Source of the DNA: Flavobacteriales bacterium
GTDB taxonomy: Bacteria; Bacteroidota; Bacteroidia; Flavobacteriales; Flavobacteriaceae
Length of the DNA: 43,056 nt
Reading direction: 5' to 3'
Assembly (NCBI GenBank): GCA_038212575.1
Contig: JBBQUI010000001.1
Span: forward strand, 1-43,056
Position 1 is the stretch's first letter. The number at the start of each line of letters is the position of its first letter. The notes beneath the pieces are model-generated. The model did no database searches and was not told where the DNA came from. It saw only the letters and a program-made list of their open reading frames with translations. Of the stretch, positions 28,638 to 35,132 are shown piece after piece. A program made the position numbers and the translations under genes.

Positions 28638-28667
28638 TAAAAAAAGAGTGGCATAGACCACTCTTTT
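28638..28667 (-). terminator. Intrinsic terminator after the AP/TPR/sulfotransferase gene
   Basis: AAAAGAGTGG-cataga-CCACTCTTTT perfect 10-bp inverted repeat with A run. Confidence 0.8.
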
Positions 28668-28687: not shown

Positions 28688-31228
28688 TTATTTTACTTCT
28701 GTCTTAAATTTGTTTCGGTAGAGGGATTTGTCTATACATTTTGCCATTTCATTAATATTCAAAGGAAGTCCAATGAGGTCTTCAATTTTTTTGATCATCT
28801 CCTTCGGCTTGTCCAAAACATCTTTATAATCAATATAGATGAGTTCTACTCCAGGTTCTTTTTCTTTCCATTTTTCAATTGTTTTCAATTGTTCTACAAA
28901 TGAATTATAAAGCTTTACCGGAAAGGTATCGGGATTTTTACCAATCATTACTTGCTGTGATTTGATCACTTCGTCCAAATCTCTGATCATAAAAATGATT
29001 TTATACCTATATTGAAAATCGAGGTGCCTCAAGAGCGGCGCAACGATTTTGACTGCTTTATCCTTAGATTTATGCATCCACGAATTATCTTTATGAAGGG
29101 TCATTACCGGTTCATATTCATAATATCCTTTTGGGTTGGATAAATCTGCCTCTCTTTTATTATCAATAAGCATATCCATCCCTCCTTTATCTAGCATCTG
29201 CATCATTAAGGAGGTTCCTGATCTTGGAAGGCCTGAAACTACCACAATTTGTTCTTCTCTGTATTTAAAAGTATTTTTATCAATAAAACCTTTAGGGGCA
29301 TTAAGTTTTTCTTCTATATTTTCAAGTGCTTTTTCAGCTCTGTGAAAAGTTTTTTGCTTTAAACTTGCCGCTGTTTTAAATGCGATTTTCGCATTTTCAA
29401 GGTCGCCCATTTTTTCTAATGCCTTGCCCAACATATAATGGGCGGCGGGGAAATATTTAACAAGTTCTATACTTATCAACGCATGTTCTGCGCTTTCTTG
29501 GTACTCGCCAAGCTCAAAAAGTGCCTCTGATATAGCTTTATGATATTTAGCTTTATCTTGTTCCATTTCTATGGCATTTTCAAAAGAAATTCTGGCTTTT
29601 TCGAAATCTTTAAGTATAAATTGTGCATTTCCTATTTTGTACCATACTTCTGCATTTTCTTTTCTGTTTTTTGCTTGCTCTAAAATTTGGAGTGCTTTTC
29701 GAACCATTCCCTTTCCCACTAAAATATCTGCCTCAATAAAATAGATATTATACTTTACCTCAGATTTTATGTTTTTGAATTCTTTGAGATATTTTGCCGC
29801 TTGATCAAAATCTTTCATTCCAATACAGACATTCATCATATCAATATAGTATGGGGCCACGTCAATTGGTTCCTTTTCTTGCATTAAATCCAGCAGAATA
29901 TCTTTTGCATTTTCAAAGTCCTTTTTCCCTATATGAACTCTTGCCAGATTGTGTTTCAATTCACATTTTGTTTTCAAAATTGCTACTTCAATTTTTTCAT
30001 CCGGTCTTTCAATATAACCAAGTTCTATGAGTTGCTCCATTGTTTCGTCATCAGAAAAAGAATTGCCATCTTCCTTCTCAAGTTCTCCGAAGTCCCCTTT
30101 TATATCTTCCCAGCTCTCTATAAATTTAGGCCGTTCCGGTTTTTGGAAGATATCCAATATTACTTTTCCATCCATATCTTTTCCTATCGGAAGTCCAAAA
30201 TGGTGCAAAATTGTAGGTGCAACATCAATTAATCCAAGCCCGAAAATTTTTTCATTTTTCTTTATATTTGGGCCACTTGCTACGAATATTCCAAACTGTC
30301 TGTGGTCCAGTGCCGGTGCGGCAGCCACTTTTGGCATTTTTAGGATACGTTTTGTGCCTGATTCAAACCCGTGATCAGACATAACAATTACCGTGGTATC
30401 ATCATCAATTAAATCGAGAACTCTACCCAACATCATATCCTGAAAGCGATATGCGCCAGTAACCACATCTTTATAAATGTCATATTTTTCCTTAGATATT
30501 TGGGGAAGTTTTGGGGGATGGTATTTCATGAATGAATGACAGAAATGGTCAATTAAATCAAAATAAATTGCCATAAAATCCCATTCGGTATTACGCAATA
30601 AATAGGTAGAAGCATTATGGAGGGAAACATTTTGGGTTAAAATACGAGAAAGGGGCACCAGTCCATTTCCTGCCTCTTTTTGATCAATTAAAGCAGCTTT
30701 GGGAATAAAAGGCAGTATGTGCTCCTTTGTGATTTCAAAAGGGAACATTCTTAAATCCCGCAATTCTTCAACCAATTTTTCGGGGTAGATGGTACCCTTA
30801 ACAATTGGGCTAGGCTTAGACGGATCTGGACTTACTTTCTGGAATTTATCCGAAACTACAACACCATTTATTGGCTCGGCGGGGAAACTGGGCCACCAAC
30901 CCACAACATTACTTTTCAATCCTTGATTATGCAAAATATTCCATATTGCTCGAGCTTTTCTTGAATTTGCGGTTACGGGCCTTAAGGCCTTTTTTGTTGG
31001 CACTACTTCCACAAAACCCAAAACTCCATGCTTGTCGGGTGTTTTCCCCGTGGCTACGGAACTCCAAAGCATAGGGCTGTATGGAGGGTTCATAGTGCTC
31101 ATATTACCATAAACTCCAGTGTTGACAAGTTTTTTCAATGACGGCATTAACCCTTTTGCAACGAGAGGACCAATTATCTTCCAATCCGCCGCATCCCAGC
31201 CAATCAACAATAATTTATTCTTTTTCAT
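28688..31228 (-). CDS. Fusion: alkaline-phosphatase superfamily (phosphodiesterase/nucleotide pyrophosphatase-like) + TPR + PAPS-dependent sulfotransferase
   Basis: aa about 1-410: IGWDAAD, PPYSPMLWSSVATGKTPDKHG, DLIDHFCH, SDHGF, LIELGYI; aa about 420-640: TPRs (AEVWYKIGNAQ, AAHYMLGKALEKMG); aa about 660-846: VVSGLPRSGTSLMMQML, IFMIRD; no signal peptide. Confidence 0.9.
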   Translation of the reverse strand: MKKNKLLLIGWDAADWKIIGPLVAKGLMPSLKKLVNTGVYGNMSTMNPPYSPMLWSSVATGKTPDKHGVLGFVEVVPTKKALRPVTANSRKARAIWNILHNQGLKSNVVGWWPSFPAEPINGVVVSDKFQKVSPDPSKPSPIVKGTIYPEKLVEELRDLRMFPFEITKEHILPFIPKAALIDQKEAGNGLVPLSRILTQNVSLHNASTYLLRNTEWDFMAIYFDLIDHFCHSFMKYHPPKLPQISKEKYDIYKDVVTGAYRFQDMMLGRVLDLIDDDTTVIVMSDHGFESGTKRILKMPKVAAAPALDHRQFGIFVASGPNIKKNEKIFGLGLIDVAPTILHHFGLPIGKDMDGKVILDIFQKPERPKFIESWEDIKGDFGELEKEDGNSFSDDETMEQLIELGYIERPDEKIEVAILKTKCELKHNLARVHIGKKDFENAKDILLDLMQEKEPIDVAPYYIDMMNVCIGMKDFDQAAKYLKEFKNIKSEVKYNIYFIEADILVGKGMVRKALQILEQAKNRKENAEVWYKIGNAQFILKDFEKARISFENAIEMEQDKAKYHKAISEALFELGEYQESAEHALISIELVKYFPAAHYMLGKALEKMGDLENAKIAFKTAASLKQKTFHRAEKALENIEEKLNAPKGFIDKNTFKYREEQIVVVSGLPRSGTSLMMQMLDKGGMDMLIDNKREADLSNPKGYYEYEPVMTLHKDNSWMHKSKDKAVKIVAPLLRHLDFQYRYKIIFMIRDLDEVIKSQQVMIGKNPDTFPVKLYNSFVEQLKTIEKWKEKEPGVELIYIDYKDVLDKPKEMIKKIEDLIGLPLNINEMAKCIDKSLYRNKFKTEVK

Positions 31229-31370
31229 TCTTTTTATCTCTTTCTTGCTTTTTCAATCTTCTCCATGCAGTAAAGGCAATATCCCCAAAGGCTAATAATC
31301 CCAAAGAACTCTCTAACGTTATTTGTGAGCTGTTCAAGATCGATTTCTCATTGTTTTTCTCTTTCTTCAT
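31215..31370 (-). CDS. Unannotated 51-aa peptide MKKEKNNEKSILNSSQITLESSLGLLAFGDIAFTAWRRLKKQERDKKNEKE, PEP-CTERM-tail-like
   Basis: Hand translation: ATG 31370 to TAA 31215, overlapping the downstream start by 14 nt; below the ORF-track size cutoff. Confidence 0.8.
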   Translation of the reverse strand: MKKEKNNEKSILNSSQITLESSLGLLAFGDIAFTAWRRLKKQERDKKNEKE

Positions 31371-31507: not shown

Positions 31508-32302
31508 ATGAAAAAAATTACTTCAAAAGATTTTTCAAAAAAAATGGCACAATATGGAGCTTTGTCATTAGCAATCGCTGGTGTTGCAGACGCATCTGGA
31601 CAAATAGTATATACGGATATTAATCCGGATTTTGTTGGTGGTGCCGGAGCAACTCTTGATATTGATTTTGATGGAGATGGCACAACAGATGTAACTATCT
31701 TACAATCCAATAACGGAAATTATGAACTAGTACAGGCTCTGCCTTACTCAACCAATGGTGTTCTAGCGGCCTCCAACACGGGTTATTTTTACGCTTCCAA
31801 CTTGGCCTACGGCGCAGCCATCAGTGCTGGAGCAGGCAGTTTCAGGAGTTTTGGCTCTCTGTGCGCAGGCGTTGGTTATCTGGGCAGCCAGTTTTGTGGT
31901 ACGGGTGAAGGATATATAGGTGTTGAATTTGATGTGAGTGGCAATACTCATTATGGTTGGGTTAGAGTAAATGTTATGGATAGTTCAAACTTTATAGTAA
32001 TGGATTATGCTTATGAATCTACACCTAATATGGCAATAGCAGCCGGCGATTCAACATTAGGCGTATCTGATAACAATTTCCAAGGTTTCAACTATTTTGT
32101 TGCAAATAGCCAATTAAACCTTTCTGCAAACACTCAAATGCAAAAAGTTGTTTTGCACAACATGGTGGGCCAACAAGTTATTTCCCAAGAACTCAACAGC
32201 AACAACGAAACTGTTGAGCTTTCTGGATTACAGTCTGGAATTTATATTGCTACCGTTTCTATTGACGGAGCACGCAAAACTGTAAAAATTGTAAAGAATT
32301 AA
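31508..32302 (+). CDS. T9SS type A CTD-containing secreted protein
   Basis: Signal peptide ending ASG|Q, DFDGDGTTD (Dx[DN]xDG Ca-binding type), HYGWVRV...DYAYE, CTD with HNMVGQQV..LSGLQSGIYIATV..KIVKN. Confidence 0.9.
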   Translation: MKKITSKDFSKKMAQYGALSLAIAGVADASGQIVYTDINPDFVGGAGATLDIDFDGDGTTDVTILQSNNGNYELVQALPYSTNGVLAASNTGYFYASNLAYGAAISAGAGSFRSFGSLCAGVGYLGSQFCGTGEGYIGVEFDVSGNTHYGWVRVNVMDSSNFIVMDYAYESTPNMAIAAGDSTLGVSDNNFQGFNYFVANSQLNLSANTQMQKVVLHNMVGQQVISQELNSNNETVELSGLQSGIYIATVSIDGARKTVKIVKN

Positions 32303-32323: not shown

Positions 32324-32353
32324 AAAAGAGCGGCTATATGCCGCTCTTTTTTT
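32324..32353. terminator. Bidirectional intrinsic terminator between the T9SS gene and rlmN
   Basis: AAAAGAGCGGC-tatat-GCCGCTCTTTT perfect 11-bp inverted repeat between convergent genes. Confidence 0.85.
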
Positions 32354-33473: not shown

Positions 33474-35132
33474 TTACTTTTTAATTATTACTTTTTTAGT
33501 GATGCTGTCTTTACTGTCCTCATCTAATAAATAAAGAAAATAAACACCCTCTGCAAGATTATCAACAGCAATAGTGTTCATAGAGTTGGCCAATGATCCA
33601 GAGTGGATACGTTGCCCAATAACATTTATCATCTGAAAGGACAAATGCGGATATCTGTTGTTCATAACAGTAATGGAAGTGCTTGCAGGATTTGGATAAA
33701 TCTTGAGGTCACCAAGAAGTTCAAACTCTGGCGTATTCAAAAGATTTTGGAGTGTTTCTGACGTGGTATGTCCAGAATTGGTAGGATCCAACCAATCCAT
33801 TAAACGGGATTCGGGGGTTGTTCCGAAGTCCCAAGAAACACCAAACCTACCATAAATATCATAATCGTTGTTGTTCTCTAAACCGTTGCAGGCAGATTGT
33901 CCTGCATATAACTGTCCAATAATTCTTCCATTTTGGTCAAATAGGGGAGAACCCGAAGAACCACTTTCAGTAGTTCCTATTTCCCAGCCATTTCCAGTGC
34001 CGTGAGTACCACCGCCAATTAGCCAAACTTGGGTGCCATTGGCATCTATTTTTTGTGCGCCGGAATCATCACGGCATATTTTCATAATATCTCCGTTCGG
34101 GTGATGTATTCCAACTTCATACAATGGATTGTTGTCTGAATTGTCCCAGCCAGCAAAAGCGACGTCCCAAGATTCAGGAATGGCGTCAAAAAGTTCCACT
34201 AATGCAAAATCACTTTTGCTATTTTTTGCTCTTAGTTCTGCCCCGCTAGTGGTGAAGTTTGTTTGCAGATCTCCGCTCTCATCGCCTGTTCCGCAAACCG
34301 GAACCGGGCTTACCCAGTTAAACCGAATAGACCAAAGACTGGGGTTACTGTTTTCCAGGCAATGGTTTGCGGTTAACAGATATGGAGTTTTGTCATTTGT
34401 AGTATTGTTCATCAAAGCTGCAGAGCACAAATACCCATTGCCTAAATTCAAGAGTGCGACTGTCTTTTTAACCAAATCCTTTTTTGAATCAAAATCATTT
34501 CCGATGGGGCAATTTACGTCATAATTGCATTCTCCGGAATCATTCAAACCACGGTTTCCATCAAATAGCGTATTCACCCTTCCCATTCTGTAACCGTGAA
34601 TAACACTATTAATCTGAAGTCTTGGTGAGCCTTGCGTTCCCGGAGGCTGATAATATTCTATCCAAATGATTTCCCCTTCAACAAACCAAGTACCTAAACG
34701 CCCATCCATTCTATTTTGAGAATTGGTATAGGTGTTTGTAATATCAGTATGGTCTTGATTGTAGAGTTGAAGGCGCGAACCATGTGGCAAATAGTAATCG
34801 TCAAAATTCACACTAAGGTTCAATGCTTCGGGTGATTTTATAACTGCTTGCCATATTTTTCCTCCGGTTGGCAAAACAGTCCAAAGGCCACCGTTTTGCA
34901 TATTTAAGACAACTGATCGCTCAATTCCGTAACGCCAAGGCATTGTTTTGTCTAAATCGTTAATGCTGTCCTGCTGAATTATCATTTCAAAATTTAAAGC
35001 AGGAAGTCGAACCACGTTGGGCAATTCTGATAAGTTTAGACCCCAGCTTTCAGGCAAATCGCCCTCACCGCCTTGTGGGAAGGCAGAAAAAAAAGCAAGA
35101 CAAAAAATGAAGAAAAGTATAGTTTTTTTCAT
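33474..35132 (-). CDS. Secreted trypsin-like serine protease (lysyl endopeptidase-like) with T9SS type A CTD
   Basis: Signal peptide, propeptide, LTANHC (His), SDFALVEL (Asp), GSSGSPL (Ser), YPNPA...GVYFL...KKVIIKK. Confidence 0.9.
   Translation of the reverse strand: MKKTILFFIFCLAFFSAFPQGGEGDLPESWGLNLSELPNVVRLPALNFEMIIQQDSINDLDKTMPWRYGIERSVVLNMQNGGLWTVLPTGGKIWQAVIKSPEALNLSVNFDDYYLPHGSRLQLYNQDHTDITNTYTNSQNRMDGRLGTWFVEGEIIWIEYYQPPGTQGSPRLQINSVIHGYRMGRVNTLFDGNRGLNDSGECNYDVNCPIGNDFDSKKDLVKKTVALLNLGNGYLCSAALMNNTTNDKTPYLLTANHCLENSNPSLWSIRFNWVSPVPVCGTGDESGDLQTNFTTSGAELRAKNSKSDFALVELFDAIPESWDVAFAGWDNSDNNPLYEVGIHHPNGDIMKICRDDSGAQKIDANGTQVWLIGGGTHGTGNGWEIGTTESGSSGSPLFDQNGRIIGQLYAGQSACNGLENNNDYDIYGRFGVSWDFGTTPESRLMDWLDPTNSGHTTSETLQNLLNTPEFELLGDLKIYPNPASTSITVMNNRYPHLSFQMINVIGQRIHSGSLANSMNTIAVDNLAEGVYFLYLLDEDSKDSITKKVIIKK

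Follow-up and report, generated by a model that had tools for sequence, protein, structure and literature searches.

Why should a bacterium encode what looks like the sorting tail of a secreted protein as a separate gene? The question is raised by a stretch of 43,056 nucleotides from a Flavobacteriales bacterium (GenBank assembly GCA_038212575.1, contig JBBQUI010000001.1, positions 1 to 43,056; hereinafter, the window). Here, a 51-codon open reading frame (ORF) precedes the gene of a large enzyme that consists of an alkaline phosphatase (AlkP) domain, a tetratricopeptide repeat (TPR) region and a sulfotransferase domain, and is divergent from the gene of a secreted protein, which we call the cargo (Table 1). 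An earlier note, made from the sequence of this window, had described the ORF product as a stand-alone tail resembling the PEP-CTERM sorting signal. Our analysis suggests that the peptide is the tail of the cargo family in a conserved copy with a gene of its own; it is predicted to bind a groove in the AlkP domain and is, somewhat more probably than otherwise, an activating or completing partner of the enzyme.

The peptide gene and its enzyme

Translation of the ORF gives the product described in the note, and the two genes share positions 31215-31228, the last of which is the first of the enzyme ORF. If translation began at a TTG two codons upstream, the peptide would have 53 amino acids (aa); a close ortholog has 51 aa counted from its ATG. 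As had been described, the core contains an Asp (position 30), and the Pro-Glu-Pro motif, a signal peptide and a passenger domain are all missing. A direct homology search yielded 4 homologs among 6 candidates (E 8e-19 to 3e-8), close homologs belong to Flavobacteriaceae by record title, and an 11-sequence profile retrieved 834 cluster representatives at E<=0.001; every one of the best 150 of these is 45-100 aa long. The core follows the family pattern P-x-x-G/S-S-L-G-L-L-A-x-G-x-x-G-x-x-A-W-R, in which Pro at position 18, a trace of the PEP motif, is retained in 37 of 57 family peptides and Asp30 in only 28 of 57. This peptide matched no curated family above its cut-off, and in the ESM Atlas both the peptide and the cargo matched only unnamed clusters, under 0.9.

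The note had called for a test of protein-level selection in the form of dN/dS. In all pairs of 20 close relatives, the 21-codon core shows 0.25 nonsynonymous differences per site (pN) against 0.73 synonymous ones (pS), and the full-length peptide compared with its nearest ortholog gives pN 0.08 and pS 0.29. The conserved Ser, Leu, Gly and Arg positions use the full range of synonymous codons, which argues against an RNA element. By these sequence comparisons, the peptide is under selection at the protein level, and the ORF is almost certainly a real gene.

The enzyme is identified by Pfam matches well above the cut-offs (PF01663, 104 bits vs a cut-off of 23; PF13469/PF00685 over the cut-off for the sulfotransferase domain). 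Its structural model (mean predicted local distance difference test score, pLDDT, 91) matches enzymes of the nucleotide pyrophosphatase/phosphodiesterase (NPP) type, and in a Foldseek search the AlkP fold matched Xanthomonas NPP (2gsn) with E 3.7e-9 and 15% identity. Single-sequence searches of PDB gave weak sulfotransferase matches only and none for the AlkP domain; the enzyme profile gave TPR proteins in its best 60 matches. Residues that we take, from family knowledge, to be the ligands of two metals and the Ser nucleophile of the AlkP domain are invariant in 76 homologs, as are the residues we assign on the same grounds to the binding of 3'-phosphoadenosine 5'-phosphosulfate (PAPS), namely, G666, R669, G671, T672, S673, R749 and S757; thus, both activities look intact. 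Adenosine 5'-phosphosulfate (APS) kinase is encoded in 5 of the 5 genomes checked. The protein begins directly with the catalytic domain and no signal peptide was seen, so the enzyme is likely cytoplasmic. It shares with the NPP branch of the AlkP superfamily the fold, the putative two-metal ligands and the nucleophile but differs by the low identity, the likely cytoplasmic location, a helical insert containing the predicted groove, and the fused TPR and sulfotransferase domains.

One motif in four positions

We surveyed the best 80 of 542 confirmed enzyme loci, one genome per species, a sample biased towards the query, and tallied them by locus states that we assigned. The motif occurs in four positions, nearly always with the enzyme: as a free gene (mostly, in Bacteroidota), as the C-terminal tail of the cargo (in other phyla), at the N-terminus of the enzyme, and at the N-terminus of a split-off sulfotransferase. 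It is off the cargo in all 53 Bacteroidota loci. At 44 of these, a free peptide gene lies upstream of the enzyme gene (one judged by eye and one 1.6 kb distant), as had been expected of an ORF conserved ahead of homologous enzymes; 7 have the motif elsewhere in the genome, and 2 have it fused to the split-off sulfotransferase. Free adjacent peptides were found at 4 further loci, including Chlorobiota and one record titled Algicola, and at one Chloroflexota locus the motif is in frame with the enzyme. The Algicola label (L025) may mislead: the enzyme of this locus groups with Flavobacteriaceae enzymes.

The 22 loci of the other enzyme branch (Planctomycetota, Verrucomicrobiota, Acidobacteriota, Armatimonadota and Gammaproteobacteria) contain no free peptide in the fetched flanks, and a tailed cargo-type gene was identified for 16 of them (upstream in 15, elsewhere in 1). 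That cargo homologs in other phyla would end in such a tail was foreseen in the note, and indeed 7 of the 14 scanned cargo-type genes upstream of the enzyme pass TIGR02595 at their C-termini. Five non-Bacteroidota genomes lacking an adjacent tailed cargo gave one tailed cargo elsewhere, two genomes with no match, and weak matches in the rest. Among 76 longer proteins containing the motif, it precedes a lone sulfotransferase in 32 and the AlkP-TPR enzyme in 8, ends a cargo domain in 32, and is placed otherwise in 4. In P0275 and P0314, a Stealth-family protein and a peptidase, respectively, the motif is C-terminal; these joins are probably read-through or frameshift artefacts. In metagenome loci of a cargo subfamily with tails mostly devoid of PEP, the motif is present in 79 of 80, so that it outlasts PEP even on the cargo; the enzyme was matched in 33 of these 80 loci, and in 12 of the 24 that extend at least 1 kb downstream. 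When 301 genomes from the phylum to which G443 belongs were searched with the peptide profile, 4 had matches at E<=0.001, two of the matches being known tails. Altogether, the free peptide is very probably homologous to the cargo tail.

In a FastTree phylogeny of 93 AlkP domains, the enzymes of tailed cargos form one branch of 21 (support 99), and a minimum of 5 changes on starred branches is required to account for the fusions of motif and enzyme. The tree is unrooted and does not give the order of the tail, free-gene and fusion states. Arguing from the pattern on this unrooted tree, an origin as a tail is the simpler reading because the order of motif, helix and basic cluster is explained by sorting (PMC1569441). 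The in-frame fusion at L052, whose contig is 1.6 kb long, might stem from an error of assembly; eight other enzyme fusions are independent of it.

Is the free peptide then a PEP-CTERM signal? In this system (TIGR02595, PF07589; Haft et al. 2006, PMC1569441), the order of motif, hydrophobic run and basic cluster is the same, and the free peptide does have a basic cluster after the helix region; cargo homologs bear fused tails that are PEP-CTERM signals, either true or decayed. The free peptide differs in lacking PEP, a signal peptide, a passenger and a good transmembrane segment, and its motif occurs also at enzyme N-termini. The defining features stated in PMC1569441 and PMC12188702 are absent from it. 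The comparison of profiles suggested in the note came out positive for half of the scanned cargo-type genes upstream of the enzyme and negative for the free peptide: only 3 of 60 family members touch TIGR02595 (best E 0.039), this peptide does not match it, and none of the 60 matches PF07589 at E<=0.01. PID-CTERM proteins (NF046080), short proteins of the Bacteroidota phylum with a similar Gly/Leu-rich tail containing Trp and basic residues, are weak matches of the peptide profile. Unlike the free peptide, they combine a signal-peptide-like start with a Pro-rich linker and are encoded at a distance from the enzyme; of 60 free peptides, 0 matched NF046080 at E<=0.05. Judged by the curated models, the free peptide belongs to neither family. 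Several short PID-CTERM proteins occur within about 10 kb in two related genomes (G327 and G355; L100, L104 and L108-L110), with NF046080 confirmed for two of them.

The tail that accompanies the enzyme also appears to be specific to this system. Under the peptide profile, 21 other PEP-CTERM tails scored at most 3.4 bits and three enzyme-locus tails 14-18 (the 21 come from five of the genomes surveyed, and 24 of the 30 loci fetched could be parsed). By the best 17-residue Hessa sum, a crude measure of transmembrane character, the medians are 6.8 for free peptides (6.0 for this copy), 3.1 for enzyme-adjacent cargo tails and 3.2 for control PEP-CTERM tails, suggesting that the free form is far less membrane-spanning than the tails.

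The free peptide follows the enzyme and not the cargo. In one draw of 400 genomes of the phylum, the enzyme was matched in 7 (one of them a partial match to a different AlkP protein) and the peptide strongly in 5, in each of which it abuts the enzyme gene; 9 more genomes gave weak peptide matches, and 2 of these genomes hold PID-CTERM proteins. The cargo domain was matched in 22 of the 400 genomes, 18 of which have neither the enzyme nor a strong peptide match. Among 9 Bacteroidota genomes with a peptide-less enzyme locus, 8 encode the peptide elsewhere: 3 in a second cassette and 5 on another contig, with a single enzyme match in the genome. Two genomes carry the three-gene cassette in tandem, with a separate peptide for each copy; the second complete copies (L013:8626-12207 and L014:1092-4865) each contain a diverged peptide and cargo. 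The association with the enzyme even when unlinked, together with the reduced membrane propensity, agrees with the note's proposal that the function is other than membrane sorting.

These observations also bear on the possibility that the peptide is a relic or a mere translational-coupling leader with an irrelevant product, as might be thought because, at most loci, it overlaps the beginning of the enzyme gene or lies close to it. Amino acid conservation with free synonymous change, retention when the gene is moved away from the enzyme, and retention as in-frame fusions speak against this view, which is already largely refuted and hardly credible.

Two observations on gene arrangement can be added. 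In two genomes (L146:1495-3140 and L148:1-1626), an unlinked peptide gene lies directly upstream of a gene for a large secreted-looking protein unrelated to the cargo. An insertion containing a 325-aa ORF, which we presume to be transposase-like, splits the enzyme gene at L008 and L012 (G146:C1), while the peptide and cargo genes are kept.

The predicted binding site

Complex prediction with the full-length enzyme and peptide residues 10-46, using our own alignments, gave a score of 0.80 (runs 0.79, 0.80 and 0.81), compared with 0.00 for the best of 3 controls; of 157 solved complexes, 116 attain the 0.80 mark, as do 2 of 215 mismatched pairs, a calibration that is roughly applicable given the use of our own alignments. 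The runs share at least 85% of contacts, and the partner pLDDT is at least 69. All confident predicted contacts connect peptide residues 21-37 with enzyme residues 158-173, 197-212 and 262-269, all within the AlkP domain and none among the catalytic residues. The peptide profile has no homolog of solved structure below E 0.05. In a covariation analysis of 75 peptide-enzyme pairs, 7 of the top 40 enzyme columns fall among the 20 contact columns, where about 2 are expected (nominal p 0.002, with kinship still included and the check made after the complex prediction). On the strength of the model, the peptide probably binds the AlkP domain.

TPR domains commonly bind peptides, and the enzyme has such a region, so that the note had considered a TPR ligand. 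That suggestion did not hold up: with the full-length enzyme on offer, the model places no confident contact on the TPR region, and both the covariation and the groove loss described next point to the AlkP domain. We therefore consider a TPR ligand highly unlikely.

The predicted groove is degenerate in the one genome where the peptide was not found. The single Bacteroidota genome of this kind (G110, 100% complete) encodes an enzyme that keeps 2 of 10 conserved groove residues (8 of 10 lost), compared with 91% of 143 other conserved positions and 7 of 7 catalytic residues; this comparison, however, involves one genome picked after the fact. The G110 enzyme may be a peptide-independent variant. 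Its gene (L007, G110:C8, 1504-4095) precedes a second gene for APS kinase and a divergent cargo gene. Position 30 of the peptide and position 212 of the enzyme also appear to be paired: among the 75 pairs, there are 22 Asp/Arg, 1 Asp/His and 3 Asp/Glu combinations, and in 49 of 49 pairs without Asp30 position 212 is Glu, Gln or Asp and never basic, but this pattern reduces to only 3 independent pairs (sign test p 0.5).

Beyond these two limits, several observations weigh against the proposed role of the groove and of the tail. At one locus with a free peptide (L090), the enzyme agrees with the groove at no more than 4 of 10 residues, and in the tailed-cargo branch the figure is only 4-7 of 10. 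Conservation in the groove (0.64) does not exceed the mean of the AlkP domain (0.65). No tailed cargo was seen at 6 of the 22 other-branch loci. The cargo tails are as hydrophobic as other PEP-CTERM tails, so that enzyme binding and membrane insertion would compete. The leader described below is present, in its strict form, in only 1 of 9 non-Bacteroidota cargo ORFs. Finally, the substrate and both chemistries proposed below are read from domain families only.

A different use of the same groove would be membrane tethering, with one face of the peptide in the AlkP groove and Trp-Arg and the basic flanks on the inner membrane; the transmembrane tail of the cargo would do likewise in other phyla, and the enzyme would have its place of action at the membrane, with either the cargo or a lipid as substrate. 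Conservation of Trp36 (57 of 57) and Arg37 (56 of 57) and the basic flanks fit such a tether, N-terminal fusions would tether as well, and the predicted groove is the same. However, transmembrane character is gone from the free peptides, the model buries their hydrophobic core in the enzyme, and the flanks are unconserved; we regard tethering as quite unlikely.

The cargo, a proposed mechanism and related systems

The cargo combines an unnamed beta-rich domain (aa 32-181) with a sorting domain for type IX secretion (T9SS), type A (aa 192-264; TIGR04183, 40.1 bits vs a cut-off of 23). The C-terminal fold matches the T9SS domain 8gl6_D (Z 11.2, rmsd 1.6, 73 residues aligned); fold searches matched the T9SS domain alone, the main domain, folded only within the whole cargo, having been barely tested. 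Bacteroidota cargos mostly have a T9SS C-terminal domain, with a lipoprotein-type start at two loci, and the tail is a separate gene. The proposal of the note that a T9SS domain replaced the tail is too narrow, given that lipoprotein cargos and enzyme fusions occur. The lipoprotein-type cargos (L010:3235-3900 and L077:2728-5706) end right after the domain, form arrays of up to five around the enzyme, and represent a third sorting mode for the cargo domain. Two other cargos (L064:3171-4301 and L150:561-1331) end in a different hydrophobic tail, which we take to resemble IPTL-CTERM.

Table 1. Features of the locus, in window coordinates
Feature	Positions	Strand	Remark
Terminator-like hairpin 3' of enzyme gene	28642..28667	-	consensus match only
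Enzyme, 846 aa: NPP-type AlkP, TPR and sulfotransferase	28688..31228	-	Pfam domains over cut-offs
Sulfotransferase domain, about aa 661-840	28709..29248	-	putative PAPS-binding residues
TPR region, about aa 413-643	29300..29992	-	no confident peptide contact in model
Helical part of AlkP domain, aa 158-269, with predicted groove (158-173, 197-212, 262-269)	30422..30757	-	
Free tail-peptide gene	31215..31370	-	51 aa plus stop; 14-nt overlap with enzyme start
Conserved core of tail peptide, aa 18-38	31257..31319	-	aa 21-37 include the predicted contact residues
Secreted cargo, 264 aa, divergent from peptide gene	31508..32302	+	unusual leader, beta-rich unnamed domain, T9SS type A domain
Cargo leader, K/R-L-x-x-Y-S/G-A pattern	31532..31600	+	typical of enzyme-linked cargos
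Terminator-like hairpin 3' of cargo gene	32324..32350	+	consensus match only

The cargo is the only broadly recurrent neighbor: its cluster is present in 67 loci, compared with 87 for the enzyme cluster, and the next neighbor clusters, in 13 loci at most, are chromosomal neighbors of close relatives. The strict leader pattern is found in 57 of 67 enzyme-linked cargo ORFs on the Bacteroidota side (it misses the cargo of this window because of a Met) and in the signal region of 0 of 19 cargo ORFs from 18 enzyme-less genomes, which have 2 matches in the mature part. Within one genus, two adjacent lipoprotein cargos of an enzyme-bearing genome carry the leader and two examined in an enzyme-less genome do not. 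Many tailed cargos show a similar leader Tyr by eye. The leader profile matched no second protein in this genome.

From these elements, the following mechanism can be proposed. The core helix of the peptide would bind enzyme residues 158-269. Where the cargo bears the tail, the enzyme would catch it by that tail in the cytoplasm before export. Where a T9SS domain occupies the cargo end, the groove would still need filling, the tail would be supplied free or fused, and recognition of the cargo would pass to its Tyr-containing leader. Since a free copy is unable to tether the cargo, its retention implies that filling the groove matters in itself. The loaded enzyme might then modify the cargo before export by PAPS-dependent sulfation, most likely of a tyrosine, and the two-metal AlkP domain might perform a linked phosphoester step, for example, clearing of 3'-phosphoadenosine 5'-phosphate; these last two steps are the weakest. 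By analogy with the peptide-activated enzymes discussed below, an activating or completing role is slightly favored. That the cargo is the modified substrate, as suggested by the domain content and the leader, comes close to an even chance without reaching it. The scenario as a whole, in which a sorting signal was co-opted as an enzyme-activating ligand, the tail is read and the cargo sulfated before export, and the displaced tail is supplied in trans or was fused several times, is tentative.

The peptide could, alternatively, be a structural or inhibitory small subunit of an enzyme whose substrate is not the cargo but a small molecule, a glycan or a lipid. The binding evidence does not separate activation from inhibition or help in folding, and the cargo domain occurs also in 18 enzyme-less genomes. 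This alternative is nevertheless unlikely in view of the recurrence of the cargo as a neighbor, the duplication of whole cassettes and the distinct leader of enzyme-linked cargos; repeated fusion of an inhibitor to its enzyme would also be odd.

[quoted passage not shown] There, this is an engineering method, whereas here the three states are natural and the element is a tail of the C-terminal sorting type; a folded secreted protein is presumed to be the substrate, and an AlkP domain is the predicted site. Features of RiPP precursors were not found: the peptides have no conserved variable core, and no protease or exporter recurs in the clustered loci. In the RaxX/RaxST system of Xanthomonas, a sulfotransferase gene likewise lies beside a small ORF, and Tyr sulfation before export provides a model of the chemistry. 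In that system, RaxX serves as the substrate and has its own transporter for export, whereas here no Tyr is conserved in the peptide and AlkP and TPR domains are fused to the sulfotransferase.

The peptide itself might accordingly be imagined as the substrate, either in the manner of RaxX for RaxST, as a RiPP-like precursor, or as a target of the Flavobacteria exosortase XrtF. The raxX-raxST layout and the presence of xrtF in this genome speak for it, the substrates of XrtF being described as unknown in PMC10936215 and PMC12188702. The absence of a conserved Tyr from the family (this copy has none) and of a signal peptide, the lack of a dedicated protease or exporter among the recurrent neighbors, the fusion of the motif to the enzymes' own N-termini in 40 of the 76 longer proteins, the unlinked position of xrtF, and predicted contacts that exclude the catalytic residues make a substrate role very unlikely. 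XrtF was also considered as the partner of the peptide and rejected, given the unlinked locus and the missing signal peptide.

Across the literature searched, mostly without subscription papers and supplements, we found no description of the peptide, the domain combination or the cassette. The data point to a protein-modification system absent from that literature and to a bacterial route for modifying secreted proteins across at least seven phyla; carriers of the cassette include, by record title, Bizionia sediminis, Marinirhabdus gelatinilytica and Stieleria marina. The peptides make up a small-protein family of several hundred clusters without a Pfam or NCBIfam model, now with a specific predicted partner and site. 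If the proposed mechanism is correct, a PEP-CTERM-type tail has a second, cytoplasmic job, and a sorting signal has turned into a free regulatory micro-protein. The cassette would then be a natural version of the leader-in-trans and leader-fused designs of enzyme engineering and part of a multi-phylum bacterial pathway of protein sulfation.

A promoter scan of the locus gave matches at chance level. In this genome, xrtF (TIGR04128) is accompanied by its partner gene (TIGR04127) at L141 (G000:C179), unlinked to the cassette. Two genes from the cargo, positions 33474-35132 of the window (minus strand) encode a 552-aa trypsin-like protease with a T9SS sorting domain, which recurs in 5 related loci.

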